Origin: a virus
Taxonomy: Duplodnaviria > Caudoviricetes
DNA: 62,029 nt
Strand: one strand, 5' to 3'
IMG/VR virus record: IMGVR_UViG_3300044980_000053
Span: 1-62,029 of that record
Each line of letters begins with the position of its first letter. The first letter of the stretch is position 1. The notes under the pieces were generated by a model that saw nothing but the letters and a program-made list of their open reading frames with translations, had not been told where the DNA came from and searched no databases. Positions 1 through 40,532 of this stretch are shown piece by piece. A program made the translations under genes and the position numbers.

Positions 1-441
1 CTTCTGAACGTCTATAGGAGAGACGTCACACGGTAGACCCGATAGATAGGCGATCGCCTCGGCTCCGTACATGAGACCCCAGTACATATAGCGAGCATCA
101 CTCGCTTCCAGAGTCATGTTGCACCCCTTGATCCAAGTCACAACATCGAAGTGGTGCCTGAACACAGAGGTATCAAAAAATACGTGTCGATAAGTACTAA
201 GGACAACGGCGTCGCATCGCGTGCGTTCTGCGATATCGTTATCACTGGCCTTAGTTAAGAGCCAGCCTTGAAGGCAATACTTAGACGTGCTGTTATACAG
301 ATCTAACGCATGAGCGCCAGCAGTGTCCGTGCTGATGCCCTTGGCGGCTTCCCACACTTCGCGCTCGGCGGGATCGGAGGGCCGCTGGACTAGTTTCTTG
401 ACTACCTTCCAGCGGTGGTCTGGCTCACGAAACTGACTCAC
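1..441 (-). CDS. Hypothetical phage protein, partial (runs off window start)
   Basis: Manually translated open frame from GTG at 441 (MSQFREPDHRWKVVKK...YRHVFFDTSVF...) with no stop to base 1; the start overlaps the end of the 984 aa ORF. Absent from the ORF track because it is truncated. Confidence 0.75.
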   Translation of the reverse strand, partial: MSQFREPDHRWKVVKKLVQRPSDPAEREVWEAAKGISTDTAGAHALDLYNSTSKYCLQGWLLTKASDNDIAERTRCDAVVLSTYRHVFFDTSVFRHHFDVVTWIKGCNMTLEASDARYMYWGLMYGAEAIAYLSGLPCDVSPIDVQK

Positions 442-3379
442 CGGACTCTGGCTCCTTCGTTCCCTGAGCACCGCGAGCCAGTCGAAGGACCAGCTCACCC
501 ATGCCGCGGAACGTAGTCTGCAGACTCTGCTCGAGCTCCTCGAACGTCGCTTCTCCGACTCGCTCACGAAGATCGACTTCCTGCATCCAGAGAGTCAGCA
601 TGACGCGTGCAAGATTATCTACCGACTTCTCGAGATTCGGGAGGTACTCACTCACGACGTTATGCAGTGCTGGAGACTGCGCGAGCATCGCCACAGCCGC
701 GGCATCGAACACGTCTTCACTCTGAAGGCGTGCCGCGTCGTGTAGGAACTGTGGGTTGATCTCGGACATCATGTCATGACTGCTCGGGCCATCCGTTGGC
801 ATCATAGCGCCAGGAGGCGGTTGCTGCCCCTGTTGCATGGATGGATCCATGCCCATCATAGACGGGTCCTGCATACCCTGCATTCCCATCATCGATGGGT
901 CTTGCATACCTTGCATAGAGGGATCCATGCCCGTCATAGACGGGTCGTGCATACCTTGCATAGAGGGATCCATGCCCATACCCATCTGAGGCATCCCGCC
1001 CTGCATAGACGGATCTTGTCCGCCCATCATGGACGGATCCTGTCCGCCCATCATGGACGGATCCTGCATGCCCTGCATCGAAGGATCCATGCCCATGCCG
1101 GGCTGGCCGCCGGACATTCCTGGCATGCCCTGCATCCCGCCCATACCTCCGGGCCCACCCGGGCCCATTGGGGACGAACCAATCATACCAGGACCCCCTG
1201 TCGCCAAGTTCATGGACGACGGAGGCGCGCCCATGGACTGGGTCTGCACGGTTGGCATCATGGGCGACCCACCCGCGATCTCGTGCGAGCGCTGAACAAT
1301 CGCCTGCACGGTTTGCTGACGCTCCATGAGCTTCTGCATCTCGTGCTGAATCGCCTGGTCCATCTCCATGGCCGCGAGCTCGACCGGAGACGGCTCGGGC
1401 GGGGGAGGCGGCTGGGCCATGGCAGCCATAGCGGCCTGCTGACCTAGCGCGTCATCACCACCGCCCGCATCGCCGCCAGGGGCGGCCCCCGCGGTAGGAG
1501 GCTTGCTACCACCAGAGGGAGGAGATTTCTTCTTGGGTTTGTCACCACCTGACTTCTTATCGTCATCGGCCGCGACCTTGTCAAGGCGCATCTGAATCTG
1601 CGCCAACTGACGAGGAGAAGCTACCCAAGCATATGAGGTACCATCAGACGCAGCTTTCTCAAGCAGCGTCCAGGCGTCCTCACAGTCAAGGACGTACTCG
1701 TGCGCAAGCTTCTTCAGAGCCGCGATCTTGTCCATGGCACCGCTGCCGTTGACAGAGAATTGCCGGGCCCCGGCGTCCTTTATGTTGACCTTCTTGGCAC
1801 CGGCGGAGGCCAGCATGCTGAGTGAGCAGTCGGCTAGATGGTGAATCGACTGAATCCAGTCGCGCTCATTCTGGCGCTCCTTGAGCGGGACCCAGATGAA
1901 CTCGGCGGGAATGTAGACGATCTGAGAGCCCTTTGGCATCCAGATGGTGTTATACGGATTGCGCTCGTCGGTGGTTATCGTGCGCTCTTCGAAGCCGCCC
2001 GGCGACTTGACCTTGATGCGCCTGACGCCGTCAGCATCCGTGCTGATGGACGTGATCTCCATCGGTACGGTGGCCTGGTAGCCAGACCGAATTTGTCGAA
2101 CGAAGAAACCCTTCCCTGCCTTAGGAGCTCCACTGACGTCCTTGAACATGCGCTCGTGCAGCGCACCAGAGGCCATGCTCTCGGCGACTAGGTCTCTGCC
2201 GACGAGAACCATCGGCTGGATGTAGTCGCCGTCAGGGAAAACGGCCAGGTACTTCGGCGCATCCCACCCGCGCTTAGCAACGAACTCGCCCTCGTCGGGA
2301 CGGCCGTACGGGTAGTACTTGTTCGAGCTACCGTGGGTCTCGGGATCGTAATACGAGTTGTCCACGATAGGCGCATGTCCGCGGATAGCAGGGCGACGAC
2401 CGTAGCGCGTGCCGCTGTCGAAGACATCGACAGGATTTGGAACCACTAGCGCCGGACGCTCACGGCCATCAGTCGCGTAGAGCGTGTAGATGTCGGCCTG
2501 GTTAGGCTCAATCCACCTCTCGTACGGCTGCTCCTTGACGGCCATGTTCCGCTCAAGGCGCTCGTCCTTGGCGGCGAATCCGCGCTTGCGTACGCCTGCA
2601 TAGGCCTCTCCGGCCTTGTCGCCAAAGATGCGCTTGAAATCCGTGGGCGTGTTGTCTTTGTCCGCAATCCAGAGTGCGCCACCAAAGTTCTGCTTGGCAG
2701 AGATTTTCTCCAGCTTGGGCTGGAGAACTTGCGCGAGAGTCGTCAGACCGTAGATTGCGGCAGCTTCCTTGAGGAGCTGCGGGTCTCGCGAGAGTGAGTC
2801 GCGGAACGCGCTCTTGACGCGGTTAGGCGCCTGCTCCAGCAGTCTCGGGAGCATCGCCGTAATGTCGTGGCCGACCTTCTCCAAGTTCTCTACCGACAGG
2901 AGCTCAGTGAGCTTTGTGGCGTCGGCCGCATACGAGAACCGACCCGTGAGGGGCGGCACCGTAACATTGCGGATGTCCACGTCCGTGTAGAGAGTCTCGG
3001 GCGTCTTGACACCGCCCCCGAGCGACGCATCTGCGTGTTTCTCGAGTTCGTCCAGCCAACCCTTGGTCAGCGGGAAGAACATGTTCTTGTCCTTGACGTA
3101 CATCACGTCGAGCGGCTTGACGGCGTTAGAGCTCATCACGACCGGCGCGTAGACGGCCATGCCCGCGTGCTCGAGGATGAACGCGCCCACGGCGTATCCG
3201 CGATCAACGTCGGTCGACAAGATCTTGAACGTCACGACTTTAGGAACGAGATCTGGCATCTTGCTCGAGAGGAGCTGATATGCCTGCTCGCTAAGTCCCT
3301 GCTCAAAAAGCTGAGTAGCCTGATCAGGCCCCGCGGGCATCTGACCTTGCTGCTGATTCATCTGTGGGCCGAATGGCAT
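425..3379 (-). CDS. Large putative virion internal/head-associated protein with Met/Gln/Gly/Pro low-complexity region
   Basis: 984 aa ORF; GAGGAG SD upstream; several K-x-A motifs (EKHA, VKSA, LKEAA, EKAAS, DKVAA); DPSM repeats; lies in the minus-strand structural cluster. Function inferred from context. Confidence 0.55.
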   Translation of the reverse strand: MPFGPQMNQQQGQMPAGPDQATQLFEQGLSEQAYQLLSSKMPDLVPKVVTFKILSTDVDRGYAVGAFILEHAGMAVYAPVVMSSNAVKPLDVMYVKDKNMFFPLTKGWLDELEKHADASLGGGVKTPETLYTDVDIRNVTVPPLTGRFSYAADATKLTELLSVENLEKVGHDITAMLPRLLEQAPNRVKSAFRDSLSRDPQLLKEAAAIYGLTTLAQVLQPKLEKISAKQNFGGALWIADKDNTPTDFKRIFGDKAGEAYAGVRKRGFAAKDERLERNMAVKEQPYERWIEPNQADIYTLYATDGRERPALVVPNPVDVFDSGTRYGRRPAIRGHAPIVDNSYYDPETHGSSNKYYPYGRPDEGEFVAKRGWDAPKYLAVFPDGDYIQPMVLVGRDLVAESMASGALHERMFKDVSGAPKAGKGFFVRQIRSGYQATVPMEITSISTDADGVRRIKVKSPGGFEERTITTDERNPYNTIWMPKGSQIVYIPAEFIWVPLKERQNERDWIQSIHHLADCSLSMLASAGAKKVNIKDAGARQFSVNGSGAMDKIAALKKLAHEYVLDCEDAWTLLEKAASDGTSYAWVASPRQLAQIQMRLDKVAADDDKKSGGDKPKKKSPPSGGSKPPTAGAAPGGDAGGGDDALGQQAAMAAMAQPPPPPEPSPVELAAMEMDQAIQHEMQKLMERQQTVQAIVQRSHEIAGGSPMMPTVQTQSMGAPPSSMNLATGGPGMIGSSPMGPGGPGGMGGMQGMPGMSGGQPGMGMDPSMQGMQDPSMMGGQDPSMMGGQDPSMQGGMPQMGMGMDPSMQGMHDPSMTGMDPSMQGMQDPSMMGMQGMQDPSMMGMDPSMQQGQQPPPGAMMPTDGPSSHDMMSEINPQFLHDAARLQSEDVFDAAAVAMLAQSPALHNVVSEYLPNLEKSVDNLARVMLTLWMQEVDLRERVGEATFEELEQSLQTTFRGMGELVLRLARGAQGTKEPESGESVS
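833..1095 (-). repeat. Coding tandem repeat, 10 x DPSM in an M/Q/G-rich tract
   Basis: GMDPSMQGMQDPSMMGGQDPSMMGGQDPSMQ... read in the translation; imperfect repeats at DNA level. Boundaries approximate. Confidence 0.9.
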
Positions 3380-5253: not shown

Positions 5254-5462
5254 CCCAAAACCTTGGACTTATGTAAATTTGCTGCGGCCGGGGCTGCAGG
5301 CGGTGCAGGCGGGGATACAGCAGAAGGCGGCGCGACTCCGCTAGCTGCGGATGCTTGAGCAGGAGACACAGGCGCAGAGCCGGGGATTCCGGGCGTCGCG
5401 CTGCTGATCTTAAAGCGTCTCAGTGCTTCAATAGAGCCGGCGTCTCGAGATTGCTTAATCAT
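5250..5462 (-). CDS. Small Ala/Pro-rich putative virion protein with shared N-terminal motif
   Basis: MIKQSRDAGSIEALRRFKIS; tightly packed with neighbours. Confidence 0.6.
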   Translation of the reverse strand: MIKQSRDAGSIEALRRFKISSATPGIPGSAPVSPAQASAASGVAPPSAVSPPAPPAAPAAANLHKSKVLG

Positions 5463-5464
5463 GT

Positions 5465-5932
5465 TTATGCTCCGGCCGGCGGCTGAGCCGCAGGAGAACC
5501 CAAGAGATGCCCTACGCCTAAACCTAGCCGGTGACCTAGGGATGCGCCAACAGGCATTCCGAGCAGGCCTCCAGCAACGCCACCATACGCGCCGCCTGCG
5601 AGACTTCCAACAGAACCCAGAAGACTTGATAGCCTTCCCTCGCCTTGCGAGCGTTCACGGCGCATCATAGACGGAAGCATGGCGGCCTGCAGAACGGTAC
5701 CGGCTCTACCAATACGCTGCATCCACGGGCTACCAGGAATGGTCGGCCAAAACACGTTACCGTGATGAAGTGCGCCGCCAGGTCCAATCGCGCGAGGACC
5801 TTGTGCAAAAACTTCTGGGGCTTGCCCGATAACCGCCATTCGCGCGCCACGCGCAAGGTCGCTGGACCCGTAGCCCAAGAGAGCGAATTTCTCTAGGGCG
5901 GCTTTGGATCCTGCTTCTTTAGCGTCGAGCAT
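5465..5932 (-). CDS. Glycine-zipper protein (putative ejection/membrane-inserting virion protein)
   Basis: C-terminal GxxxG run (GSLAGGAYGGVAGGLLGMPVGASLG); N-terminal AKEAGSKAALEKF motif. Confidence 0.55.
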   Translation of the reverse strand: MLDAKEAGSKAALEKFALLGYGSSDLARGARMAVIGQAPEVFAQGPRAIGPGGALHHGNVFWPTIPGSPWMQRIGRAGTVLQAAMLPSMMRRERSQGEGRLSSLLGSVGSLAGGAYGGVAGGLLGMPVGASLGHRLGLGVGHLLGSPAAQPPAGA

Positions 5933-7722
5933 TAGTAGCGCCCTCCCTCGCCCTTTCCAAACTCAGTTCCGGCAGCGTAGGCGCCGATTGGCGAGTAGCC
6001 GTGAAGGTCGGCCTCATCGCCCTTATGTGCGCTCTCTAGAATCGTGTCCTTCAAGTATCTGTGGCCAAGTCTAGCCATCCAGTCACTGTTCAACAACGGG
6101 ACTCTGCTTGCAGCTCGAACCTCGGGCTCTGCTCTCGGACCTCCGTCAGCAACGCTAACAGTCTTGAACCCACGTCGATGAAGTACGTCAACGATCGGTT
6201 GCGTAACTGTCGTGCCTGCTGTGTAGTGCAGAATGTCGTTGGCCAAGGTCTCACCGTGTGCTTCAGATAAAGGCAGTGTCCTGGCCGTCTTAGCGAGAGC
6301 GCTCTTGTATCTGTTGTAGTTGACAACGTCGCCGTTGATAAAGTCGTCGTTAGGGCCTGGATCTACGATCTTCACCCAGTTGAGAACCGACTTGGCGACG
6401 GTCTCAATGTGTCGTTTATCGATATCTGCTCCGGCCCGCGCGTAGACGTCGTGTAGCGCGTCTACAAGGTAACGACGACCTTCGCCCAGTCCCTTAAGGG
6501 AGACAACATCTGCTGGGCTGGGAACACCGTCAGATAGCGCGTCGCCCGCGAACACTGACTGGCCCTTCTCGATGATCGGCTTCTGATCCGGCGGAACATA
6601 GTGCTGCAACTCACCGACGTAGACGTAGTGACCGCCCTGCGGAGCCGCAGATACGTTTCTGACTTCTCCGTCGTGCTCGGCCAACACCGCGCGGTGCATA
6701 AAAGATTTCGGAATCTCGAGGAGCTGACGAACACCCTTGATTCCCTCTAGCATCTTCTTGTCTGAACCCGCGGCAGAAATGCGACCGCCGTGCTTTGCGT
6801 TAAGAGAGAACTGAGTCAGCGGCTCACTTAAGCTCTGAGCTGCGCGAACACCTACGTTGGTTCCTAGAGGAACGTGTTGACCGTATGCGTCAAGTCCCTG
6901 GCACTTTTGGCACACGCCCGCAGTAGCTTCACACGTCATCGGCGAGCGCGCAACAACATCCTCGTGCTTCTTGGCGAGCTCTGTAGCGAGTTGCGGAGTG
7001 ACGAGTCTCCCGTCGGTGAGATACCTGTCGATGATGTTAGGGTCATCACCCTTCATCAGAAGACCGTTCTTTGTACCGCAGTCTGGCGTGGTGATAAGTT
7101 TGTCGTTGGTGTTGTTGATGAGGATCTTTGCAAGATCGCCAGGCTCTGTCACGGAGATGTTCGACAGCACAGCATTCTTTCGCGCTTCAACGCCGGCAGC
7201 CCACGACTCCCCTGGCGTGAGACCTTCAGAGAAGGAGTGGCGAATCGGCCACATCATTATCTTCTCTTTTGAGTTACGCACTAGAACAGGCGCCGCGACC
7301 ATGCGCATGAGCTGACCCACGCTACCTCTGCCGCCTGACTGAATCATTTCGCCCATGGTCCCGCGGTTCTGTCGCGTGAGTTTGAGCATCGCATCTTGGC
7401 CATCGAGCAGAGCCTTCTCGCGCTCTTCTATGTTCTTAGACTCTTTGTAGGCTTTGATGTGCGGAGCGAGAAGCTCGTCGCGTTTCGGATCCGGTTCTAT
7501 GTCGTCGAGGCCAACGGAGATTCCCTCGAGAGTCGCGAGCTCGTCGCCGAGTCTCTTGAGTTTTGTGACAATATCGGGATATTGGTCAGGGTGTTCTCGC
7601 GCCAAACGCACGAGACCGTCATTCAACGAGTTCTTTGTAAGCTGCTTGTCAGTAACCTGCCACTTACTCGGCAGGATCTGGTTGACTAGGTGTTGACCGA
7701 GAGTGGGCACATTAATACCCAC
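5932..7722 (-). CDS. rpoC: Multisubunit RNA polymerase beta-prime subunit, C-terminal part
   Basis: Bridge helix (FSEGLTPGE...ARK), Zn site (DCGT...RSPMTC...GVCQKCQG), trigger loop (AAQSLSEPLTQFSLNAKHGG), DKRHIETV; collinear with bacterial RpoC. Confidence 0.93.
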   Translation of the reverse strand: MGINVPTLGQHLVNQILPSKWQVTDKQLTKNSLNDGLVRLAREHPDQYPDIVTKLKRLGDELATLEGISVGLDDIEPDPKRDELLAPHIKAYKESKNIEEREKALLDGQDAMLKLTRQNRGTMGEMIQSGGRGSVGQLMRMVAAPVLVRNSKEKIMMWPIRHSFSEGLTPGESWAAGVEARKNAVLSNISVTEPGDLAKILINNTNDKLITTPDCGTKNGLLMKGDDPNIIDRYLTDGRLVTPQLATELAKKHEDVVARSPMTCEATAGVCQKCQGLDAYGQHVPLGTNVGVRAAQSLSEPLTQFSLNAKHGGRISAAGSDKKMLEGIKGVRQLLEIPKSFMHRAVLAEHDGEVRNVSAAPQGGHYVYVGELQHYVPPDQKPIIEKGQSVFAGDALSDGVPSPADVVSLKGLGEGRRYLVDALHDVYARAGADIDKRHIETVAKSVLNWVKIVDPGPNDDFINGDVVNYNRYKSALAKTARTLPLSEAHGETLANDILHYTAGTTVTQPIVDVLHRRGFKTVSVADGGPRAEPEVRAASRVPLLNSDWMARLGHRYLKDTILESAHKGDEADLHGYSPIGAYAAGTEFGKGEGGRY

Positions 7723-8107
7723 CCTGCTGTGGACCCATCATCTGTTGCATCTGCGCGGCTTGCATTGCTTGCTGCTGTTGCTGCGCCTGCTGCTTAGCCT
7801 GCTGGTGCTTGTGGAGCATGTAGATTCCGCCGCCGATGGCTGCCGACGGTAAGAGAGTTCTGATGTTGCCCATGGCGCGCTGACGCGAGAGCTCACCAAG
7901 ATCTGCCATCGGCCCTTGTGCGCCCTCGGCAAGATGGCCTACGCCCTCGAGACTCTTGGGCAGGCCGCCACCGAGGCCGCCCATGAGATGGCCGGGTAGT
8001 TCTTTCATGGCCTGAAACTGACCGCCGAAGAATCCGGGACCTTCATCTGCGAGCTTGAAAGTCTTCAGTGCTGCGATGGCGCCCTCTGCGCTTGCTTGCT
8101 TGATCAT
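7712..8107 (-). CDS. Small putative virion protein (Gly-rich, hydrophobic segment, poly-Gln tail)
   Basis: MIKQASAEGAIAALKTFKLA N-terminal motif; packed between the two RNAP genes. Confidence 0.6.
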   Translation of the reverse strand: MIKQASAEGAIAALKTFKLADEGPGFFGGQFQAMKELPGHLMGGLGGGLPKSLEGVGHLAEGAQGPMADLGELSRQRAMGNIRTLLPSAAIGGGIYMLHKHQQAKQQAQQQQQAMQAAQMQQMMGPQQGGY

Positions 8108-8613
8108 CAGAACACCATCCCGGCACCAGACGGGCCGCCTGAATCAACGGCACGCGAACCTGTGTCGCCTGCCTGCGGGTTCACTGTTGGACCCCAGTGG
8201 ACTGTTCTATCCAGAGGATCCTTGTGATCCTTCTGGTCGCCGGGAGGATTGAGGCCGTCTAGCCCCTGAAGAATCTGCTCGAGGTTATCTGCGTCTCTGC
8301 GATCGCCGTATGCGTTTCCGCCCTCGGATGCCGGCTCTGGAGAGGGACCAGCGTCGGCCTTCTTATGGCCGCTCTCAGCGGCTGCACGCAAGGCTGCGTC
8401 ATAGCCGTGGAATTTTCTGGTTGGTAACTGAAGCCTCAGTTCCTCTCCCGCTAACTTGAAATCTCTTAGTGCGGCGGTGACGGCTAAGTCGTGAGCTTTC
8501 TTAACATGTGCAGGCAACTTAGCCCCCTTAGGCGTAGCGTCTTCGAACTCTCGCGCTACCTCTGGGTGATTAGCCCAGAGATATGCACGTTGCGCTCTCG
8601 ACCTCATCGGCAT
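8107..8613 (-). CDS. Small putative virion protein
   Basis: MPMRSRAQRAYLWANHPEVA...LPAHVKKA N-domain followed by the AAL..FKLA motif. Confidence 0.6.
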   Translation of the reverse strand: MPMRSRAQRAYLWANHPEVAREFEDATPKGAKLPAHVKKAHDLAVTAALRDFKLAGEELRLQLPTRKFHGYDAALRAAAESGHKKADAGPSPEPASEGGNAYGDRRDADNLEQILQGLDGLNPPGDQKDHKDPLDRTVHWGPTVNPQAGDTGSRAVDSGGPSGAGMVF

Positions 8614-8631
8614 AGTTACTAAAAGGTTAGC

Positions 8632-11600
8632 TTACTTATCTATCTTGACGGGGTCATTGAGATCCAATTCTCCACGATGATAAGCCCCGAGCGCTTCCTC
8701 TGTAGAGGCAAAACTCTTGGTCTTTTTATCACTACTTGGCCTAGTAGCGCGGTGAAGACCCATAATGCTTTCCATCTCAGGAGCAATGTTTAATGAGCGT
8801 GGATTCCTGTCAGAAAATAGAAGGTGCGACAGCGTTATATTTTTGGAATCCTCCACCGCTGCTGGCGTGACGGGAACGTGTATTTGAACCGTATTCGACA
8901 GGATTGTTCCATCGACGGCCATAAACGTCTCTGAGCCCGGAACCGTAAGATCATAACCGGTTTCGCGGATGTTTGTGGCTTCGTAACTTACCACACGGTC
9001 CCAGCTGATTGATTCATTGTCTACCAGGTTAACCCAGGGAATAAAGTCCACCTGTTGTCGTAACGTTGGGTGATCCGACAAAATGCGTTGAGCCGTGTGG
9101 CGCGTCGTATACCCGTCGCTAATCGCATTACTAAGCGCAGTGTACGTAGCGTTCTTGTTGCCATATAGTCGACGCGCCTCTTTTGCTATTGCAAGAGGTA
9201 TCGGAACTATGTCTGTTCTCGTATAGGCAGAGGCCGTCTTATCTATTGGCTCAGCAAAGTAAGCCTTAAACCTTTGTGCCTTAGTCTCGTGAGCCACGCA
9301 CAATGAGCCGAGTTTACGAAGTTCAACGCTAGACGGCGTAACAACCCAACAATCAAGACCCTTGGGGGTCTTTGTCGTGGTGATTGTAGCGGTAACGTTG
9401 AGCGACTTATAGAGCAGTACCGTCTCTTGTGCCAACCGAATACTGGTTGTGCAGTGATTGATTATCCACTGAGGTTTTGCTTTGCCGTGACTAACAGCAA
9501 TGCTGCCATCCGTGTCGATAAGACCCGCCAGGAGACCACGACGAAACTCTTCAGGGGCTGTCAGAAAGAAAGGAGGAAGATGTTTATTTCGTGCGCCGTG
9601 TCCGATGAGCGGAGCAACAAGAGACGCATATTCCACAGAGCCTACGGCTAGCTTCTGGCTATTGGGCCCGAAACCCTCTCCTTTCCTTGTTAGATGCGTA
9701 ACTGTTGGCGTCAAACTAAAAATTTCTTGAAGAAGCGTTTTATACCGTTCTTGAATAGCCGGCTCTATCGCAGCCAGGTTTACGACTGAAGGGCCGTTGG
9801 CTAGCTCGTCGACCCAACCGTCCCCGACCAACATACCGAGTAATTGTCCTACGCCCTCCGTAAGAGAGATCGTCGAATTTAGTCGCTGTTCTCTGGGTCG
9901 ATTTCCTCGCAGTTGACGTTCTGACGTCATCATTGATACGCAAACGTCTAATGGCGATAGGTGTCGCGCTATAGGCACAAATACGCCTCCCGCTTCTGCA
10001 GGTCTTCGGCGAACAGTATTGAGCTCACGAGTAAGCCCATACACCGCGCGAGGGTCGTCATCAGATACAATCTGACGGCCAGATGCGAGTGTTACGGTTT
10101 CAACGTATCGATCTTTGTGTACCGACCACGCGGAGACCTTCATGAGTTTAAGTTGCCCCGTCGATGGATCGTGCGCTATCACACGAATCCCTTCTGGCAC
10201 TGCATAAAAAGCGCGATGTTCTTTTTCGAACTGAAGCGCGCCGTGTGGAAAATTTTCCAGGGGGCACACAAAAAATCGATCCCCCTCCAGATAACCCGTG
10301 ACTGTTTTGAAGCGCGCGGTCATTTGTTCATCCTGTTGTTCAGCATGTCGCCATGCTAGCACGTCTGCTTCTTTTTGTCCATAGTCTGTAAAAAAAGAAG
10401 AAGAGATACACAGGATTACGTGTCCAAAACAGCAGTCACCGTCATAGTCGAGGTTAGCCCCTCGTTCGTAAGCGGGTGCGATTTTAATCGCCTTACCTCC
10501 AATTAACCGGGGATAGGCCGCCACAATATTGCTCCTGCTCAAAGAAGGCGCACGGTTCACGAGTACAGGTCGATCCTTGGATTCGTTGATGAGCTCGTCT
10601 CTAGCAATGGGAGTTCTGTCATCTACCATGCGCTGAGCTTCGACTGCCGGATATCCGCGACGAACCAAGCGACCAATGATGAACTTCGAGTACATCGTCC
10701 ACGCCATGTCCTCTGGAAGACCGATCTCGTCCATAGACAGTTCCGGTCCAGGAGACACGACGCCTCGTCCGCTTGGCGTTTGCAGACGCTTCATAATCTT
10801 CGACTGAAAAAAGCCGTTGCCGGGGCGAGACCCTGTGATAGCGAGTATATAACCCTTTGCGTCTCTCTTGTTTACTCCCGGGCTGACCGGCTCTCCGATT
10901 CCAAACAACGCACTGACAGCGTCGTACAAGTGTTGACGAGGGGCGGCTAGCTCCTTGTCCGGTAGAACCTCTTTGACTTTCTCGAGGCCGTCGTTAGCCA
11001 AGAACGCATCTCTGTAAAGGAGATTTGCGTCACCGACTTGGAGCTTGCCGTCTGGCAGCGGCAGAACCGGGCGGATAATTGGCGGCGTGACTGGGACCTT
11101 GCTCAGGACATATGCCTTGTCCGGGGTGAGGCCGAGATCTTTAAGCGCCTCGAGGTACTTCACCTTCTTGACGGTATTATCTAAGGCGGTGCCCTTGAGG
11201 CGTCTAGCTTCATCGCGAAGGTTCTTGATCTCCTTATCCATGTCAATGGCACCGAGTGCGCTCTTGAACCAGTTGCCGCCTTTGCCGACGTGTTCTGTAA
11301 ATTGATCCTGTGTCAAGTTGAGAAGCTTCTTCACGGGCTCTTCGAACACAGGATTAACAATTGGCTCGACAAGATCGACGTGAGACCACTTAGTGCCAGA
11401 GGCTCCGCCGGTTCTAGCAGGGTCAAATAGTCCGCCTGTTTCTGGCTTTAGATCCTTGGCTCTGATCATCTTACTAGGATCTGGCAGTGCCCCGCTAGAC
11501 ATCTTGGTGATGTCCGCATCGGTGAGCGGGCCGAGTGCGAGCCTGGAGCCGCTCTTGTTAACCTTGATACCGGCACCAGTGAGCATGGAATGAAGTTTGT

Positions 11601-14547
11601 CATACACAAACGACGTCTTGGGTGCGGGAGTAGGTAGGCCAAGTTGAATGGCTCTCCAGAACTCGTCGTTTCTCTGACTCTTTATGGTGGCAGACTCACG
11701 GAGTATATTTCTCGCGTTGTGTGACACGAGACCGTCGAATTCCATTCGACCGATTCCCTTGGCCCCGTCGTCACCGCCCTTTGCTGGCTGTTCGTTGTAG
11801 TCGTAGCGGCCCGGTTGACTAGCCGACCACCCGCTCTCGGCGGTCTTCATGAGCTTGAGGATGTACGCATTGCCAACGAACACATTCGGAATTTTTTTTC
11901 CTGTGACAGGATCAGTGACAGTCTCCTTGTCAGAGAGTCCAGCCTCCTTTAGCTTGTCGCGCGCGAACTTAACAGCATTGCCAGGCATGTACTGCGGAGC
12001 AATGATCGGCTTGCCCGTCTTAGCCGCTACCTTGCCGAGAGCGGCCTCTATGATCTGACTCGGATTGATTCGCGTGATGACACCCGCACTCGTAAACAGC
12101 ACGTCGATTGGGTGACCGGACTCGTCCTGCAGCATCTGATCATCCGGAATGATCTGTGCAATCACACCCTTAGCCCCGTGCCTGTTGGTAATTTTATCGG
12201 CGATCTGGAGCGGCTCCTCGGTCTTAACGGTGACGCTGTGTCGAGCTTCGGTTTTCGCGACGTCAGATACTACGCCAGGGTTGTCGCTATTCCAGGTCTC
12301 AACTACCTCTCTATACGGCTTCACCAAACTCTTCGACAATTTGCCAAGGAGCGCCGCATCGCCGGTGACTACGTTGGGGCGCACCGCAACAAGAAGAGGA
12401 TCTCCTTTGTAGACGGTTGTCCCGGGCTTTATTACGCCGTCGTCGTCGAGATTTGCATACTGCTTGGCGGTGTATCTTGGGCCGAAGTAAGTCTTATGTC
12501 TCTCTCGACCGGCCTGCGTCTCCCCGCTGATATCGAGCACATGTTGATACATGTGCTCACTCGTTAGTTTGTTGGCGGCGTTTTGACTGACAACTAGACC
12601 ATCGTTTGAATTGAGGCCACGGGCCGCTACGTACGCTACGCGTAGATTTGTACCGAGAGCGAGGGTTCCGTCCTTGGTGAAGTTAGACTCAGCCAATAGC
12701 TGGCCTTTCTTCACTTCATCGCCCTGTTTAACGATCAGATTATTGGTGAGATACGTTTTAGCGGCCAGCGGAAGATCTTGGTCATAGTGCAGCTTCATAA
12801 CGCCGCCCGCAGCGCTTGTCTTTGTACCGCGAGGCGCCAAGTGAATGTAGTCACCGTCGATTTTGGTGATGACACCGTCCTCTCTAGCGGTAGGGACAAT
12901 GATCTTGGCAAACTCCTGCTCAACAGAGTGTCCAGGAGCCCACGACTCGACTTGCACGTTTGGAGCCTCTCTGTGCACGAGGGGCAACGCCTGCTCCTGG
13001 TGCTTAGACGCCATGAGTGATCGGTTACCTTGCATGCTTCCGATTAGTGGAAGCAAGTTGGTCGTGGGGCTAAACATGTCCGTCGCATGCCTGATCTCAT
13101 GAGTGACGCGGTCTGATGGCTCGTGTCCCATGAGGTGGTTGTGCATGGTCTCGATTATCTTACCGGGACTCAGGTCCTGTCCTGGAAAGGCGATTACGCT
13201 CTTACTAGCCTCTTTAATGCTGAGAATTTCATCCTTGCCGGTTTTGACGTTCCTGTAAGTTCCATAGAGATTGTTGTGATCATCACGCATGGTACCGATA
13301 GCCGCGCGGACATCGACACCGGCGTGGAAACTCTCGGGCGTCCTGACCTCGTCCAGAATCCCGAGGTGAGTCATGTGCGCGTCGCGAGCCTCTATAGGAA
13401 TGGCGCGTTCCGTTGGAATCGCGCCCTCGCCGAGCATAGTTACCTTAGACGCCTGACTGATGAGCTCCATCGGATTGATCTGCGTGGGAACAGCAGAGAG
13501 CGATGAGCCCGTCAAGAAACCGTTCACTGATTTCGTGAACATGCCAGACGGGATAGCGTCGCGGAGCTTTCCCTTGGCTGCGTCTAGCTTCCATCCGAAC
13601 TTGTTGCGCATAGAGCGTGCCGTGAGGCCGAGACGCTCTCGGATGAAGTCGTCTACTGAGTGGAAAGTCTTGAACTCTAGTGCGTCACGATCGTCGACGT
13701 TTCTGGCGTTCTTGTGAACGTCGAGAAGTTTATGGCCGGCCGAGAGTAGCGCCTGCGGTGACGCCTTGTCGAAAGGGTGACCGAGAGTCACCTCATTGAC
13801 GTCTGGGTCCATCTTAGTCGTATCGAAATACGCGCGCAACGCATCTGCGCGCGCCTCCGGCGTGGCTGGCCTAGGACGGCCAGGTCGCTCCAAGATAACG
13901 TCGTACAACGTGTCGACGTGCTTCTCTGGCTTTGAGAATTTTTTGTTGTTGATCTCCGCTACTTCAGAACCCCAAGCTCTAGATATATCTTGGTGAGGTA
14001 CGCCAAGAGCCTTGAGAACAGGATATAGACCAATCTTCGAGGAAGTGTGCGAGGGCGTGATGTACAGAAGACCTTTCTCTTGGTCCATCGACATCTTTAG
14101 ATTGGCACCCTTGGCCATGTTGAACTGCGCCTCAAGAAGCTGGTTGCCGCGTCTATGCACATAGACGCCGGACTTCGGCCGCAGTAGGTTGGCGACAGCG
14201 TACTCTGTGCCATCGAGGATAAACGTGTGCCTGGGCGTAAAGTACGGCAGGCGCAGTAGCGTGAAGCCCTTAGCCTGATCAGTTACCTGTCCGGCTGAGT
14301 CCTTTACTATCAAGTCTCCCTTTACGCGCTCAGATAGCGTACGGCCCTCCATTAGAGCCTTCTTCTGCTCGCGGGACGAGAACTCCTCTGGAACTACGTG
14401 AGCGTTGTTCAACTCGATAGTCCAGCGACCCGCCTTCATAGGAAAAGACTGGTTAAGGCCCTCTACGGCGGCCTTTCGGATGTAACCACGTCTGGTGTCG
14501 CTGTCTTCCAGAACGGGGCGCAAGTTCTTGGTAGAAGAGTCTGTCAC
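8632..14547 (-). CDS. rpoBC: RNA polymerase beta subunit fused to the N-terminal half of beta-prime, intein-containing (about 1457 aa after splicing)
   Basis: Beta motifs: RTPESFHAG, NRSLMASKHQEQA, DKITNRHGAKGVI, RINPSQIIE, KGIGRME. Beta-prime motifs: KPETGGLFD, VPVTPPIIRP, SGRGVV, LVNRAPSL, catalytic NLDYDGD at 10435-10455. Confidence 0.95.
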   Translation of the reverse strand: MTDSSTKNLRPVLEDSDTRRGYIRKAAVEGLNQSFPMKAGRWTIELNNAHVVPEEFSSREQKKALMEGRTLSERVKGDLIVKDSAGQVTDQAKGFTLLRLPYFTPRHTFILDGTEYAVANLLRPKSGVYVHRRGNQLLEAQFNMAKGANLKMSMDQEKGLLYITPSHTSSKIGLYPVLKALGVPHQDISRAWGSEVAEINNKKFSKPEKHVDTLYDVILERPGRPRPATPEARADALRAYFDTTKMDPDVNEVTLGHPFDKASPQALLSAGHKLLDVHKNARNVDDRDALEFKTFHSVDDFIRERLGLTARSMRNKFGWKLDAAKGKLRDAIPSGMFTKSVNGFLTGSSLSAVPTQINPMELISQASKVTMLGEGAIPTERAIPIEARDAHMTHLGILDEVRTPESFHAGVDVRAAIGTMRDDHNNLYGTYRNVKTGKDEILSIKEASKSVIAFPGQDLSPGKIIETMHNHLMGHEPSDRVTHEIRHATDMFSPTTNLLPLIGSMQGNRSLMASKHQEQALPLVHREAPNVQVESWAPGHSVEQEFAKIIVPTAREDGVITKIDGDYIHLAPRGTKTSAAGGVMKLHYDQDLPLAAKTYLTNNLIVKQGDEVKKGQLLAESNFTKDGTLALGTNLRVAYVAARGLNSNDGLVVSQNAANKLTSEHMYQHVLDISGETQAGRERHKTYFGPRYTAKQYANLDDDGVIKPGTTVYKGDPLLVAVRPNVVTGDAALLGKLSKSLVKPYREVVETWNSDNPGVVSDVAKTEARHSVTVKTEEPLQIADKITNRHGAKGVIAQIIPDDQMLQDESGHPIDVLFTSAGVITRINPSQIIEAALGKVAAKTGKPIIAPQYMPGNAVKFARDKLKEAGLSDKETVTDPVTGKKIPNVFVGNAYILKLMKTAESGWSASQPGRYDYNEQPAKGGDDGAKGIGRMEFDGLVSHNARNILRESATIKSQRNDEFWRAIQLGLPTPAPKTSFVYDKLHSMLTGAGIKVNKSGSRLALGPLTDADITKMSSGALPDPSKMIRAKDLKPETGGLFDPARTGGASGTKWSHVDLVEPIVNPVFEEPVKKLLNLTQDQFTEHVGKGGNWFKSALGAIDMDKEIKNLRDEARRLKGTALDNTVKKVKYLEALKDLGLTPDKAYVLSKVPVTPPIIRPVLPLPDGKLQVGDANLLYRDAFLANDGLEKVKEVLPDKELAAPRQHLYDAVSALFGIGEPVSPGVNKRDAKGYILAITGSRPGNGFFQSKIMKRLQTPSGRGVVSPGPELSMDEIGLPEDMAWTMYSKFIIGRLVRRGYPAVEAQRMVDDRTPIARDELINESKDRPVLVNRAPSLSRSNIVAAYPRLIGGKAIKIAPAYERGANLDYDGDCCFGHVILCISSSFFTDYGQKEADVLAWRHAEQQDEQMTARFKTVTGYLEGDRFFVCPLENFPHGALQFEKEHRAFYAVPEGIRVIAHDPSTGQLKLMKVSAWSVHKDRYVETVTLASGRQIVSDDDPRAVYGLTRELNTVRRRPAEAGGVFVPIARHLSPLDVCVSMMTSERQLRGNRPREQRLNSTISLTEGVGQLLGMLVGDGWVDELANGPSVVNLAAIEPAIQERYKTLLQEIFSLTPTVTHLTRKGEGFGPNSQKLAVGSVEYASLVAPLIGHGARNKHLPPFFLTAPEEFRRGLLAGLIDTDGSIAVSHGKAKPQWIINHCTTSIRLAQETVLLYKSLNVTATITTTKTPKGLDCWVVTPSSVELRKLGSLCVAHETKAQRFKAYFAEPIDKTASAYTRTDIVPIPLAIAKEARRLYGNKNATYTALSNAISDGYTTRHTAQRILSDHPTLRQQVDFIPWVNLVDNESISWDRVVSYEATNIRETGYDLTVPGSETFMAVDGTILSNTVQIHVPVTPAAVEDSKNITLSHLLFSDRNPRSLNIAPEMESIMGLHRATRPSSDKKTKSFASTEEALGAYHRGELDLNDPVKIDK
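8893..10434 (-). mobile_element. Intein with LAGLIDADG homing endonuclease (514 aa)
   Basis: Begins with Cys after DYDGD; motifs LLGMLVGDG and LLAGLIDTDG; ends GYDLTVPGSETFMAVDGTILSN with +1 Thr. Removal restores DYDGD-TVQIHVP (compare DFDGD-QMAVHVP). Confidence 0.93.
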
Positions 14548-14906
14548 GACAGAGGTCCAGATTTCTCTACGGGTTCGACGTCACTCATAGAATCTACCTG
14601 GTCAGGGCGAGCAGGCGCCTTGTTCTCGAACCAACATAGAACGATGACGTGCTCGCCGGTCTTGGTCTCATAGCTCTTCTCGTAGCGAATTGTTATCTCA
14701 CCTGACCAGGCCCTGTTGCAGACGTCGTCGTAGTCTGCCAGCTCCTCAGGACAGTTGAACATCTTCGTACACTGCCGAACGCTGGGGCCCTTACGGGACT
14801 TACCAGAAACGGTAACAGGAGACGCTGCCTGTCCGAATGGGTGGGCTCCCGTGAGCTCCTGCATGCGGTTCAGTGTTTCTGCGAAGTCGTCTTTCTTGTC
14901 TGCCAT
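14544..14906 (-). CDS. Hypothetical protein coupled to the RNAP gene
   Basis: 120 aa; AGGTG SD; 4-nt stop/start overlap with the RNAP gene. Confidence 0.75.
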   Translation of the reverse strand: MADKKDDFAETLNRMQELTGAHPFGQAASPVTVSGKSRKGPSVRQCTKMFNCPEELADYDDVCNRAWSGEITIRYEKSYETKTGEHVIVLCWFENKAPARPDQVDSMSDVEPVEKSGPLS

Positions 14907-14935: not shown

Positions 14936-15632
14936 CTACGCGCCCCAACGATCTCGTTGGGCTTGTGACATGCGAATCTTTGCCTCGGGCGTATATTTTC
15001 GTCCGCGTTGTCTAGCGGACATCGCTTGTCTTTGTTCGAGAGTTGCCTTGTGACCGCGGCGCGCAGCCGATATTAGCGCGCGATTCATCAGACATCTTTT
15101 TACCTTTATTACTTTCTGAAATTTTCTTACGGTGTTCTTCAGTCTTAGGAACGCCTCGGCGCTGCTCAGACATAAGATCTCGTGTTTCTTGCGAGAGTTT
15201 CTTACCCGTTTGTGCGATTGCTAATTTCATTCGATGTTCGGGAGATTTTGTTCTGCCTTTATTTCCTGCGGAAATCGCCGCTCGCGCTTCTTCGTCATGT
15301 TTGTATCCGAGTTTTCCTGGGCCCTTAGCCTTTGCGTTAACAAGACGACAGCCTAAGGATCGAAAATACTCGGTCCAATAGTCTTCAGCGGCGTCCATGA
15401 AGGGCGCAGGTACTTCTTGAACCAATCGAATAGTTGGAATCACGTTTTGTTGCACCAGACTTTGAACCCAATACACGCGATAAGGTACGCGCCCTCGGTT
15501 ACGATTTTCTCGTTGTCCTTTGTCCTTAAGATGTTGTGCTAGACGGATCTCAAGCGCCTTGATTGTACGACCTACGTACCGTATCTCGCCATCTCGTGGG
15601 TCTATAAGAACGTATATCTTCGCGATTTTCAA
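14936..15632 (-). pseudogene. GIY-YIG homing endonuclease with NUMOD3 repeats, frameshifted near 15068 (track ORF stops at 15012)
   Basis: KIYVLIDPRDGEIRYVGRT domain plus NUMOD3 repeats; the repeats continue in another frame (GHKATLEQRQAMSARQRGRKYTPEAKIRMSQAQ) to TAG at 14936. Confidence 0.8.
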
Positions 15633-15637
15633 AATAT

Positions 15638-17422
15638 TTATGCCACCGTTTCTCCGTCAGAGGGCGGACTCGTGGCTCCCGTAGGATCTTGTCCTGTTCT
15701 TGCCATAGAGATCGCTGCTCTGTTTTGCTGCTGTGTCGCGTCTTCAAGAGATAATTTTACTAGCGCGTACATTGGTTTATCGCGTTTTTCGAGTTCCGTC
15801 ATCTGTGAACGTCTAGTACCTTCATCCAATCCCATCAATTGTTGAACGATTTGATCGGCCTGTTGTTGCATAGCTTGCGGATCATATGCGGCACCGCTTT
15901 GTCCTAGTTGCGCCTGCGTGCGCGCCTGGAGACCAAGTTCATTCTGTCGCTTCTGCATCTCGATATTGATTTCGGATGCGACTCTCGCGTCGTCGAGTGT
16001 TTCCTGCTTACGCTTCTGCCGCTCCTCAACTGGGTCGACGTCAAAGGCCTCACCAAGAGTAGCCTTGGAAATCCACGGACCGCTGGACGGATCAGCCATA
16101 TTGAGCTGCAAGAGCAGCGCCTTCTGTTGCACGTCGTCGATGAATTTAAACGGCGCGAGCTTGACCTTAATAGATCCCCAACCAAGCAGCTTGGCGGTCT
16201 TATCTGTTATCCACTGCAGGAGATCGTTTAGATCTGTGGTCTGATGAATCAACTGGTTCTCGAGGACGCGTAGCTGAATTCCTGAACCCATAGCGGAGAA
16301 CCCGCCATAGATGAACTCCTTGGGGAGTCCTAGTGCCGCAATAATGTTGTCCTCGGCCGCCTGAACTTCGCCGAGCGTCATAAGAGCGCGCGCCTGTCCG
16401 CCGAAGTGGGTAACTTCAGCCGGGATAGGCGACCACATGATGTGGAGCGGATCTCTGCGCCAGCGCTTTACGCTAGACTTCATCTCCGCTGTCCAGTGAG
16501 ACAGGTTGATCGTCAAAAGCGGATCGGCGTTGGCCGTCGACTGTTTCGGCGAGATGATGCGCATCGGAACGATGTAGTCGAGTGCGATAGCTTCGTTTGC
16601 CTTGCGTAGAACCGCGGCAAAAAAGAAGAGCTTAATTGTCGACGACAGGGGCGGAAATCCCCACTGCGCTTCGATGCCGGCGGGTGCGTCCATCTTAAGA
16701 TGGCAGACCTGCCCGTCAGCGAACTTAAAGATCTTGTCGTCCTTAAGAGTGCGGAGGAACTCCATTGGCATAGAGTCAATGAGGTGCTTGTTGTTTTTAG
16801 CGACGCGCTCTTTCAGCTCTTTCGGAATTGTCCAGTAGTATTCTGAATGTCCTGTTATCGGGTTATGATCGATGTCGATAAGCTTTGGGTCCCATCGAAT
16901 AATCGAGATCTTGTCTGGCTTAGCAATCTTCTTGTCCACGACGTCGTCGGGGCCCGCTTCAGCCTTCGCATGACAGCTTGGACATACGTAAGAAAAAGTA
17001 AGCTTCTTGAGACGAAAGCGATAGTTCAAGCTGGTGGCATTCGACTGCTGTCTGCAGTGCGGGCACTTGAGAAAACGTACGAACGGAGAGTACATCGAGA
17101 AGAAAGAGTTGCCGTACGTAAACTTGTCAATCGCCGCTTTTACTAACCATCGCTTGACATGGAGTTGTTCGTCGAGCAGCTTTTCGTACTTCTTCTTCAA
17201 TCCTTCGTTGGTCGTCTCATAGAGAATATCTGTGATCGGATACGTACAAAACTTCTGGAGTGCCGCATAGATATGGGCAGAATTGAAGTACAGATACTCC
17301 GTAAGGCGGAATAAGTCTTTTAGTTTTCGAGGCGCGAACGCCGTGAGAAAATCAAACAGCGGATTGCTGTGTGATGCTACGTTGCCAAAGTTAAGGTCTC
17401 CGCCGGCGTCTAGATCAAGCAT
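15638..17422 (-). CDS. Portal protein with Zn-ribbon insertion
   Basis: 594 aa; portal-like motifs (DKFTYGNSF, HLKMDAPAG...WGFPPL, IIAALGLPKEFIYGG); CPHC..CPSC insert; Gln-rich tail. Confidence 0.7.
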   Translation of the reverse strand: MLDLDAGGDLNFGNVASHSNPLFDFLTAFAPRKLKDLFRLTEYLYFNSAHIYAALQKFCTYPITDILYETTNEGLKKKYEKLLDEQLHVKRWLVKAAIDKFTYGNSFFSMYSPFVRFLKCPHCRQQSNATSLNYRFRLKKLTFSYVCPSCHAKAEAGPDDVVDKKIAKPDKISIIRWDPKLIDIDHNPITGHSEYYWTIPKELKERVAKNNKHLIDSMPMEFLRTLKDDKIFKFADGQVCHLKMDAPAGIEAQWGFPPLSSTIKLFFFAAVLRKANEAIALDYIVPMRIISPKQSTANADPLLTINLSHWTAEMKSSVKRWRRDPLHIMWSPIPAEVTHFGGQARALMTLGEVQAAEDNIIAALGLPKEFIYGGFSAMGSGIQLRVLENQLIHQTTDLNDLLQWITDKTAKLLGWGSIKVKLAPFKFIDDVQQKALLLQLNMADPSSGPWISKATLGEAFDVDPVEERQKRKQETLDDARVASEINIEMQKRQNELGLQARTQAQLGQSGAAYDPQAMQQQADQIVQQLMGLDEGTRRSQMTELEKRDKPMYALVKLSLEDATQQQNRAAISMARTGQDPTGATSPPSDGETVA

Positions 17423-25906: not shown

Positions 25907-26698
25907 TTACAGGGCTAACTGAAGAAGCTCCTCCGCGACCTCGTCACTAAGAGTCTCGCGGAGAAGTTTTAATCCACGCATCTTAGCCTGGCGAATCTCC
26001 TCCGGTGTCAAGCCCATAAGAGATGCTATCTGCGATAGGTTCTTGGATTCTCCTCTGAACCCAAAGAACAACTTCAAAACAACGGCTTCTAGGTTAGGTA
26101 GACCCGCAAGGATCTTTTCAATCGCTTCCCTCCGCTCATCCGCACTGGCCGCGTCGACACGGGAATCAGCGCCTCCTCGCGCAAACTCCTCGTCGTCTAC
26201 CGACTCCAGCGCGGCCCCGTCACAGTAAGGTATCATGCCAGCAACGGCATCGGCCTCTGGTGAAGCTACTCCAGTCGCGTCTGCGACTCTCTTAGCGCGA
26301 GCGGCTCTGCGATATTCTTTCTGCCGGTGTGTAGGAACATGAACGAGACTAGATGTCGCGTAATCATGGTCCGACATCTCCTTGTGGACCCACCATCCAG
26401 CATACGTTAGGAACTTGATAGGTGGTTTTCTCTCGCAGTCGAAACGGTCAATTGCCTTGAGCAATCCTAGGTTTCCTACCGCTATATAATCCTGCACTGC
26501 GACAGGATCTTTTGTTCTCTTGTGTGCTTGTCTGACAACAAATTTCAGGTGACTCTGTACAACAGCGTCTCTGGATTTGTAGTCCTTGTTCTGCTGCCAT
26601 AGACGAATTAATCGTCGTTCTTCAGCAGCATCTCGCACAACAGGCGTGCGACCAATTTCGTTGTAATAGAGAACAGCAGGCGATGGTCCATCCGACAC
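25907..26698 (-). CDS. Sigma70-family RNA polymerase sigma factor
   Basis: Region 1.2 (YYNEIGRTP...EERRL), region 2 (DYIAVGNLGLLKAIDRFD...KFLTYAGWWV), region 4 HTH (NLSQIASLMGLTPEEIRQ). Confidence 0.9.
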   Translation of the reverse strand: MSDGPSPAVLYYNEIGRTPVVRDAAEERRLIRLWQQNKDYKSRDAVVQSHLKFVVRQAHKRTKDPVAVQDYIAVGNLGLLKAIDRFDCERKPPIKFLTYAGWWVHKEMSDHDYATSSLVHVPTHRQKEYRRAARAKRVADATGVASPEADAVAGMIPYCDGAALESVDDEEFARGGADSRVDAASADERREAIEKILAGLPNLEAVVLKLFFGFRGESKNLSQIASLMGLTPEEIRQAKMRGLKLLRETLSDEVAEELLQLAL

Positions 26699-40471: not shown

Positions 40472-40481
40472 GCTCTGCGAC

Positions 40482-40490
40482 CTAAGTGTA
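40482..40490 (-). promoter_or_regulatory. Candidate late promoter motif TACACTTAG
   Basis: 10 nt upstream of the terminase ATG; matches the shared motif. Confidence 0.45.
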
Positions 40491-40532
40491 ACCGATAGCA
40501 ACCGATAGAGAAATTTGGGAGGATTGATAGAT

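Follow-up and report, generated by a model that had tools for sequence, protein, structure and literature searches.

The stretch of DNA analysed here, called the window below, is a 62,029-base-pair (bp) virus record from IMG/VR (IMGVR_UViG_3300044980_000053). CheckV put its completeness at 33%, which implies a genome of roughly 190 kilobases (kb), and the source is best explained as an uncultured tailed phage of that size, about a third of which is covered, from a lineage that includes Salmonella phage Arash. Its minus strand encodes a bacterial-type RNA polymerase (RNAP) in two chains. The chain 1 precursor gene (8632..14547, minus strand) is one open reading frame (ORF) of 1971 residues composed of a β portion (residues 1 to about 1003, the junction being approximate; 11539..14547), an N-terminal part of β′ (about residue 1004 to 1371; 10435..11538) that ends in the catalytic motif NLDYDGD, a 514-residue LAGLIDADG homing-endonuclease intein (residues 1372-1885; 8893..10434) and a C-extein of 86 β′ residues (TVQIHVPV...) with the stop codon (8632..8892), which aligns to the last 85-93 residues of intein-less relatives. 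The GTG start at 14547 is supported because homologues align from residue 1-8. The rest of β′ is the separate 596-residue chain 2 (5932..7722, minus strand), which lies beyond two small ORFs (8107..8613 and 7712..8107) just as an earlier note, made from the sequence alone, had described; the note's central claim of a phage-encoded, bacterial-type RNAP of two chains is likewise upheld by Pfam domains and by matches to β and β′ chains of the PDB.

The fusion is evident from the order of domains. Pfam placed the β domains Rpb2_2, Rpb2_3 and Rpb2_6 at residues 148-924 of the 1971-residue ORF, with the β catalytic barrel (Rpb2_6, PF00562, E 4.4e-42) at 599-924. Further along the same frame come the β′ domains Rpb1_1 and Rpb1_2 (1103-1376), LAGLIDADG_3 (1667-1736) and a match to an intein-splicing domain (1755-1883). 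The motif NLDYDGD occupies residues 1365-1371, keeps all three aspartates of the catalytic triad and aligns to the NADFDGD of solved chains. In a search of the PDB, residues about 1081-1371 aligned to β′ 174-464 in E. coli numbering, and an intein-free relative (P0006, 1457 residues, 69% identical) matched bacterial β chains at E 5e-59 and β′ chains at E 1e-45. A profile of 28 relatives matched β up to profile position 1022 and, at positions 1090-1460, β′ 176-550 (Pseudomonas chain 7xya_D). From the profile and PDB alignments of β′ it follows that chain 1 ends about 86 residues past the Asp triad, and conservation is high in the part of it that matches the clamp segment of bacterial β′. The earlier note had one ORF running through β directly into β′ and on to about 85 residues past the catalytic loop. 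The fusion stands but "directly" does not, as the 514-residue insert at 1372-1885 intervenes, and the figure of 85 residues is correct for the spliced product only.

Some of the features that had seemed peculiar to this phage are traits of its family. Among 121 proteins longer than 1000 residues (the window protein P0001, its database copy P0005 and 119 relatives), the catalytic motif reads NADYDGD in 95, NSDYDGD in 11 and NLDYDGD in 8, while 7 did not match the pattern used; NLDYDGD had thus been read correctly in place of NADFDGD, but it is not special to this phage. The DYDGD form is shared by the family, and so is a cysteine-free N-terminal segment of β′. Residues ~1000-1100 of chain 1 lack cysteine, as does the zinc-ribbon segment in the consensus of the 28 relatives, in agreement with the Zn-binding Cys cluster having been reported missing. 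Only 4 residues separate GGLFDP (1038) from KWSHVDL (1053), motifs which we take to be the equivalents of the E. coli zinc-ribbon flanks. These features fit a loss of the N-terminal β′ zinc ribbon with its four cysteines. A single-sequence PDB search with the 161-residue β/β′ junction segment returned chance matches alone, the 28-relative profile left positions about 1023-1088 unaligned in the PDB, and HMMER did not align the stretch from the end of β to residue about 1081, so that the loss of the ribbon is argued from the motif reading and the absence of cysteine. Elsewhere in β, seven relatives (P0059, P0066, P0073, P0078, P0082, P0084 and P0115) carry a 120-190-residue non-intein insert in a loop near residue 576 of P0006. 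Several of these proteins have precomputed GNAT acetyltransferase Pfam domains (PF00583, PF13508), assigned at the level of the whole protein; chain 1 of the window has no insert at this site.

The 596-residue chain 2 carries Rpb1_5 (PF04998, E 3.3e-19), the module of the bridge helix and trigger loop, and aligned to β′ 589-1080 of 7l7b_D. Its residues 6-473 fall onto M. tuberculosis β′ 666-1187, the Asp triad of which ends at 541, and the cysteines of the second zinc site are readable in it (DCGT ... TCEATAGVCQKC). By these alignments the break in β′ would lie roughly at DGD+90 to DGD+125 in bacterial numbering. Phage chain 1 itself ends at DGD+86, compared with DGD+154 for the cyanobacterial gamma chain 8h3v_E (625 residues, DGD ending at 471), and the earlier placement of the break slightly upstream of that between rpoC1 and rpoC2 was accordingly accurate.

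The insert in the catalytic loop, which the earlier note had overlooked, begins directly after the last catalytic Asp and contains two LAGLIDADG motifs. In an alignment of the window protein with 119 relatives, an insert at the DGD site was present in 5 of the 120 proteins (the window and four relatives) and absent from the other 115. Residues 1346-1901 were modelled with AlphaFold from an alignment of 37 sequences; the model had a mean predicted local distance difference test score (pLDDT) of 79.7, and Foldseek matched it to endonuclease-bearing inteins, among them TliVMA (E 1e-21) and PI-PfuI. VIA-align superposed model residues 27..540 (protein residues 1372..1885) onto residues 1..537 of PI-TkoII (2cw7) with Z 25.1, a root-mean-square deviation of 3.8 and 401 aligned residues; PI-PfuI (residues 1..454) gave Z 19.7 and PI-SceI (residues 1..454) Z 17.4. 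The Hint fold brings the termini together and the in-frame insert is absent from homologues, as in class 1 inteins. A nucleophile (C1372), a terminal Asn (N1885) and a Thr at position +1 (T1886) are all in place, and excision would restore NLDYDGD-TVQIHVPV, of the same length as the intein-free NADYDGD-AMQIHAPV. The intein fold and the boundaries DGD|C ... SN|T are therefore well supported. A disordered loop of about 24 residues follows the first strand of the model.

Two other readings of the start of the insert were set aside. A Cys 57 residues into the insert (FFVC|PLENFPH), conserved in five sequences, was considered as the true first residue, but Val, Thr, Ile, Leu or Phe stands there in many relatives with compared junctions, and the structural alignment places residue 1 at C1372. 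The first about 50 residues were also considered as a degenerate duplicate of an extein strand (QMTARF vs QMAVHV); in the model they are partly the first Hint strand and partly disordered. Separately, the fused RNAP gene of several relatives (P0008, P0040, P0044, P0081, P0093, P0112 and others) holds further inteins of ~350 residues (C...GN|S) at three other conserved sites, namely after RTPE, before SNRxGxKG and before SGFFQ, and P0112 (2825 residues) has four inserts in all.

The intein belongs to a sizeable family with odd catalytic residues. In a HMMER search with the intein, 804 of 1.84 billion representative proteins matched at E<=0.001, and 239 did so at E<=1e-30. Among the best 150 matches, 108 have D-x-D-G-D no more than 60 residues from the predicted start, and most of the others are fragments; 296 IMG/VR stretches encode a relative. 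Across 106 aligned members, block B reads (T/S)DDDPRAVYG, Asp taking the place of the customary His in 106/106, and the F:4 Asp (106/106), the terminal Asn (106/106), the +1 Thr (106/106) and the His of a W-S-x-H motif are invariant. The penultimate residue is Ser in 105/106, and the acidic residues of the LAGLIDADG motifs are conserved as well (D1576 in 93/106 and D1680 in 100/106). Position 1 varies: only 7 of the 106 have Cys or Ser, against 39 with Gln, 16 with Asp, 14 with Glu, 11 with Ala and others in the rest, while 23 of 54 distinct IMG/VR copies start with Cys, Ser or Thr. The window intein and its nearest intein-bearing relative, P0133, both start with Cys. In five intein-bearing relatives (P0252, P0255, P0259, P0262 and P0263), the triad reads D-F-N-G-D, the middle Asp being replaced by Asn.

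By the published definitions, class 2 inteins have Ala1, a penultimate Ser and Cys+1 and require His at B:10, and class 3 inteins have Cys at F:4 (Mills, Johnson and Perler 2014, PMC4031507). Judged by its residues, the family fits neither; nor does the window intein fit class 2 (KlbA-type) or class 3, with its Cys1, Thr+1, B:10 Asp and F:4 Asp. Because all members sit in the active site of what is, where checked, the phage's only RNAP, they must be removed from their host protein. It is conceivable, though we would put the chance well below even, that the DGD-loop intein is one of a large phage-borne family whose splicing follows none of the three described classes. For members without a nucleophile at position 1, we conjecture that Thr+1 attacks directly, as in class 2, or that the invariant extein Asp at -1 assists; the window copy, which has kept Cys1, may represent the conventional end of the spectrum. 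Some relatives are encoded in two pieces. In L054 and L056, the first ORF stops 63 residues after DGD and the second starts with Met in another frame; in L072 and L073, a stop 21 residues after DGD is followed by a restart; L025 has an in-frame TAA 25 codons after DGD; and at least 10 representative proteins begin at the same Met. Such relatives would be candidates for naturally split inteins, in which a very short N-piece pairs with a long C-piece still bearing the endonuclease. A full-text literature search for an intein at the NADFDGD loop, which did not extend to subscription journals, found no paper naming the insertion site, and it is the active-site intein in the Mg-binding loop, together with its peculiar family, that is new here.

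The fused and split layout of the RNAP genes proved to be widespread. At the nucleotide level (megablast), the 8.6-kb region matched none of 50,697 phage records; relatives were reached by protein-level searches alone. The best of these in the same records were Salmonella phage Arash (OQ632216.1; PMC10585845) and Vibrio phages D69, D181 and D148. Arash gp206 (1525 residues, annotated "subunit beta") is 35% identical to chain 1 and colinear over the β/β′ junction; its alignment stops exactly at DYDGD and picks up again at the last 93 residues. Arash gp216 (606 residues) is 32% identical to the 596-residue chain 2 from end to end. In a collection of 5.8 billion proteins, 571 matched chain 1 at E<=1e-10, and the 120 of these that were listed are mostly 1450-1490 residues long, with Rpb2 and Rpb1 domains on one chain and on contigs that reach about 197 kb. 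Among the 120 relatives examined this layout is the rule, and it is the norm of a very large lineage; the unusual architecture seen by the earlier note is thus no one-off and is shared by cultured, deposited phages (Arash, D69, D148 and D181). Viral contigs scanned with the short protein P0164 yielded no match. In D181 and D148, the fused gene is broken near β residue 505 by about 950 bp with a homing-endonuclease gene and small ORFs (L003 8983-14497 in D181), either an intron or a true gene split; in D69 the fused gene is continuous.

As an architecture, then, the fusion and split are not new to databases; they mark a widespread and deposited but uncharacterised enzyme type. The earlier note had set against its own proposal the possibility that the layout was already characterised in a described phage family. 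The layout does occur in the deposited Arash and Vibrio phages, yet this fused and split arrangement was not described in the literature searched, subscription journals lying outside that search. Papers on phage multisubunit RNAPs and inteins, judged by title or the start of the abstract, included none on the fused and split enzyme or its intein, and in the accessible text of the Arash paper the genes are labelled β and β′ and the words "fusion" and "fused" have 0 occurrences (PMC10585845). In the PHROG comparison, the unannotated family phrog_24349 (E 1.7e-58) matched far better than the best family annotated "RNA polymerase beta subunit" (E 1.2e-24), a comparison by E-value.

Six-frame Pfam searches (E<=1) of the window and of the complete genomes of Arash and Vibrio phage D181 addressed the subunit complement. 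Neither α (PF01000, PF01193) nor ω (PF01192) was detected in any of these three records, and both were detected in 14/14 control genomes, which supports the note's statement that the window has no α or ω gene. Rpb2_6 had exactly one match in each record. The other finding that the note had set against itself, an α gene and a second RNAP set elsewhere, appeared in neither complete genome by Pfam. Sigma70 region 2 matched once in the window, twice in Arash and once in D181. The window factor, a sigma-70-family protein of 263 residues (25907..26698, minus strand) with regions 2 and 4 (Pfam Sigma70_r2 and Sigma70_r4, PHROG 351), is similar to Arash gp196 (E 3e-15) but shows no such likeness to the virion sigma gp10 (best E 0.24), so that its proposed role as the partner of a virion enzyme is not favoured.

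The RNAP genes lie beside a gene for a portal protein (15638..17422, minus strand, 594 residues), which is 28% identical to Arash gp204, annotated "portal protein" (E 5e-81). All listed PDB Foldseek matches of its AlphaFold model, a low-confidence one from 28 sequences, were portal or portal-neck entries (HFTV1, lambda, T4 gp20, SPP1 and others). In four compared loci (Arash, Vibrio D181 and two IMG/VR contigs), the order of SNF2-type helicase, portal, small ORF, fusion gene and then the gene for the C-terminal part of β′ is kept, with variable spacing between the two RNAP genes (9 genes in Arash vs 2 in the window). The window has the same order of portal, small ORF and RNAP, with a GIY-YIG endonuclease gene added. 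In tandem mass spectrometry of Arash particles (PMC10585845), the fused chain gp206 ranked first of all proteins with 3516 spectra (128 unique peptides) and was accompanied by gp216 (40 unique peptides, 1210 spectra), sigma gp10 (24 and 467), portal gp204 (32 and 877) and gp218 (36 and 1149); the major capsid protein gave 1333 spectra. The earlier suggestion that position pointed to packaging in the virion is sound as regards the place beside the portal; packaging of the window enzyme itself is suggested by analogy with gp206 and gp216 of Arash and by that place.

The explanation that best joins these results, and which we consider likely, is a two-chain phage RNAP made from an intein-bearing precursor and probably packaged in the virion. 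Chain 1 would be the whole of β joined head-to-tail with β′, from near the N-terminus of the latter to 86 residues past the Mg-binding Asp triad, and chain 2 would supply the remaining β′ with the bridge helix, the trigger loop and the second zinc site. The covalent β-β′ link could replace the scaffolding provided by the α dimer, and promoters would be recognised through phage sigma-70-type factors. In the chain 1 precursor, the intein would have to excise itself (Cys1372 ... Asn1885 | Thr1886) and restore NLDYDGD-TVQIHVP before the enzyme works, and its endonuclease would spread it to intein-free alleles. Finally, the mature enzyme would probably travel inside the capsid and enter the cell together with the DNA to carry out early transcription, as the Arash analogy and the adjacent portal gene suggest.

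Several observations weigh against parts of this explanation. With regard to packaging, the enzyme could instead be a non-virion RNAP made after infection for middle and late transcription, its detection in Arash particles being carry-over and its place beside the portal being without functional meaning. That abundant proteins were simply carried over is an alternative raised by the Arash authors, and the 116 proteins scored as virion in their preparation include many metabolic enzymes, among them ribonucleotide reductases, as well as RNA ligases and helicases (PMC10585845). The window sigma is of the gp196 type, and gp196 is missing from the gp190-gp225 stretch of the Arash virion table, in which gp194 and gp197 are listed (PMC10585845). 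Confidence in the portal model is also low (pLDDT 63.9, best Foldseek E 5.6e-5, TM-scores 0.2-0.37). However, gp206 was the most-detected Arash protein, well ahead of the major capsid protein by spectra that are not normalised for the length of its 1525 residues, and gp216 and gp10 were detected with it. The order of portal, small ORF and RNAP is moreover kept in relatives at 28-35% identity, and with one RNAP set per genome the same enzyme would serve all phases. We regard a non-virion enzyme as the less probable account and continue to favour packaging.

Since the window covers ~33% of the genome, the rest might hold a second RNAP set or accessory subunits, although the two complete relatives, with a single set each, argue against this as far as Pfam models can see. 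Diverged analogues of α or ω may escape such models, and the enzyme could also use host α or ω. In the latter case the two phage chains, which are near enough to bacterial β and β′ (E 1e-45 to 1e-59), would assemble on a host α dimer, perhaps with host ω, as a hybrid enzyme and not a streamlined core. We find this improbable, given that the two complete relatives have no α or ω gene and that a packaged enzyme must act before meeting host proteins or carry host α along; moreover, other phage multisubunit RNAPs have no α or ω homologues and bind no host subunit stably, according to the accessible text of a 2026 review (PMC13282480). As for the intein, the window copy lacks the block-B Thr-x-x-His, reading SDDDP there, and has Ser in place of the penultimate His. 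With two usual residues missing, splicing is assumed from necessity, that is, from the insertion site and the intact frame. If the intein no longer spliced, the gene would be dead or would yield cleaved fragments only. The frame of 1971 codons is intact, however, and retains Cys1, the F:4 Asp, the terminal Asn and Thr+1; the deviations are invariant over 106 diverged members, which points to selection and not decay. Some 5% of functional inteins do without a penultimate His (PMC4031507, in its accessible part), and the window and the two complete relatives each have a single RNAP set to depend on. A non-splicing intein thus seems very improbable, and a precursor that splices into a two-chain enzyme is retained as the preferred explanation.

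The remaining genes of the neighbourhood are less readily interpreted. Between the portal and the RNAP lie a small ORF of 120 residues (14544..14906, minus strand), placed at the position of Arash gp205 by position alone with no sequence match reported, and a free-standing GIY-YIG/NUMOD3 homing endonuclease (15012..15632, minus strand), which had no counterpart in the four compared loci (L002-L005). The two small ORFs between the RNAP genes encode a protein of 168 residues with the motif AALRDFKLAGE (8107..8613, minus strand) and a Gly/Gln-rich protein of 131 residues with the N-terminal motif AALKTFKLADE (7712..8107, minus strand), neither with a Pfam or PHROG match. Together with the ORFs at 5250-5462 and 5465-5932 (both minus strand), to which the motif of the 131-residue ORF is also common, they share A-A-L-K/R-x-F-K-L/I (for example AALKTFKLADE, AALRDFKLAGE, EALRRFKISS and AALEKFALLG), followed by low-complexity sequence rich in Gly, Ala, Pro and Gln, and none has a family match. 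To judge from the motif, these four small ORFs around the chain 2 gene look like a paralogous set, possibly of capsid-targeted or protease-processed companion proteins. Farther along, a 984-residue protein (425..3379, minus strand) is related by sequence to Arash gp218 and, among the compared loci, matches only gp218 and the D181 locus. Between it and the chain 2 gene, an acidic, low-complexity protein of 442 residues (3580-4908, minus strand) has an internal repeat (AEGSTLEGGDK...RPEG(F/Y)A...APARSDSKDNSV) and no family match. Besides the intein, the 62 kb hold 7 free-standing homing-endonuclease-type genes (15012-15632, 20371-21417, 44545-45870, 45873-46445, 48114-48635, 48693-49130 and 55109-56095), of which 1 is the GIY-YIG/NUMOD3 gene and 6 are HNH or endonuclease VII-like, one of the 6 being fused to an RNA ligase.

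If the preferred explanation is correct, this phage lineage possesses a compact RNAP that is still bacterial-like, with two chains, no α, no ω and no zinc ribbon, working with sigma-70-type factors. Such a combination of RNAP and sigma would fall outside the pattern drawn in the accessible text of recent reviews, in which phage multisubunit RNAPs come in multiple pieces and without sigma, and sigma-bearing phages come without RNAP (Iyer et al., 2021, PMC7824862; 2026 jumbo-phage review, PMC13282480). Because relatives have cultured hosts (Salmonella and Vibrio), the replacement of the α scaffold and the packaging and injection of a sigma-dependent enzyme are open to experiment. The intein in the Mg-binding loop would add a natural on-switch for the enzyme, and its family would provide splicing domains with unusual catalytic residues that could serve protein engineering.

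Compared with known systems, the enzyme shares with the bacterial core RNAP (α2ββ′ω) the double-psi barrel domains, the Asp triad, the bridge helix, the trigger loop and the second zinc site, and its chains align to solved bacterial chains over nearly their full length. It differs in having no α or ω genes and no β′ zinc ribbon, in the break of β′ 86 residues after DGD and in its smaller size (about 1457 + 596 residues vs 1342 + 1407 for the E. coli chains). Fusions of β and β′ exist in Helicobacter and Wolbachia. The cyanobacterial and plastid rpoC1/rpoC2 arrangement (8h3v_E) likewise divides β′ between the catalytic loop and the bridge helix, but its break falls about 68 residues later than that of the phage, β is a separate chain, and α and ω are present.

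Among phage enzymes, the RNAPs of phiKZ and AR9 are also phage-encoded, without α or ω, with a split β′ and with a virion form included. They are far more diverged, come in 4-5 pieces and in two sets, and have no sigma-70 homologue according to the accessible text of the reviews (PMC7824862, PMC13282480), whereas the present lineage has one set of two chains and one or more sigma-70-type factors. RNAP-encoding Caudovirales were reported by Weinheimer and Aylward (2020), and the accessible portion of that paper mentions neither fusion of subunits nor inteins, virions or sigma. Its mReC clade comprises Caudovirales with β and β′ detectable by cellular models, a terminase large subunit (TerL) of the PF03237 type and a major capsid protein of the PF07068 type. 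The window TerL (38852-40582) matches PF03237 at 28.9 bits; no capsid protein was identified in the window, and the sample numbers of two relatives are not in the supplementary files of that study.

The intein, for its part, resembles PI-TkoII, TliVMA, PI-PfuI and PI-SceI (2cw7, 7qss, 1dq3 and 1vde) in its Hint fold with an inserted two-motif LAGLIDADG endonuclease and in its Cys1, F:4 Asp, terminal Asn and +1 nucleophile. It is unlike them in sitting at the RNAP Asp triad and in having (S/T)DDDP for T-x-x-H in block B, a penultimate Ser and a disordered loop of ~24 residues. The Arash RNAP differs from that of the window in the absence of an intein at the DGD site and in an identity of only 32-35%. 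In other respects the two are alike: both have the β-β′N fusion with a break 86 residues after the triad, a separate C-terminal β′ chain of ~600 residues, the DYDGD form of the motif, the order of portal, small ORF and RNAP, and sigma-70-type factors with no α or ω.

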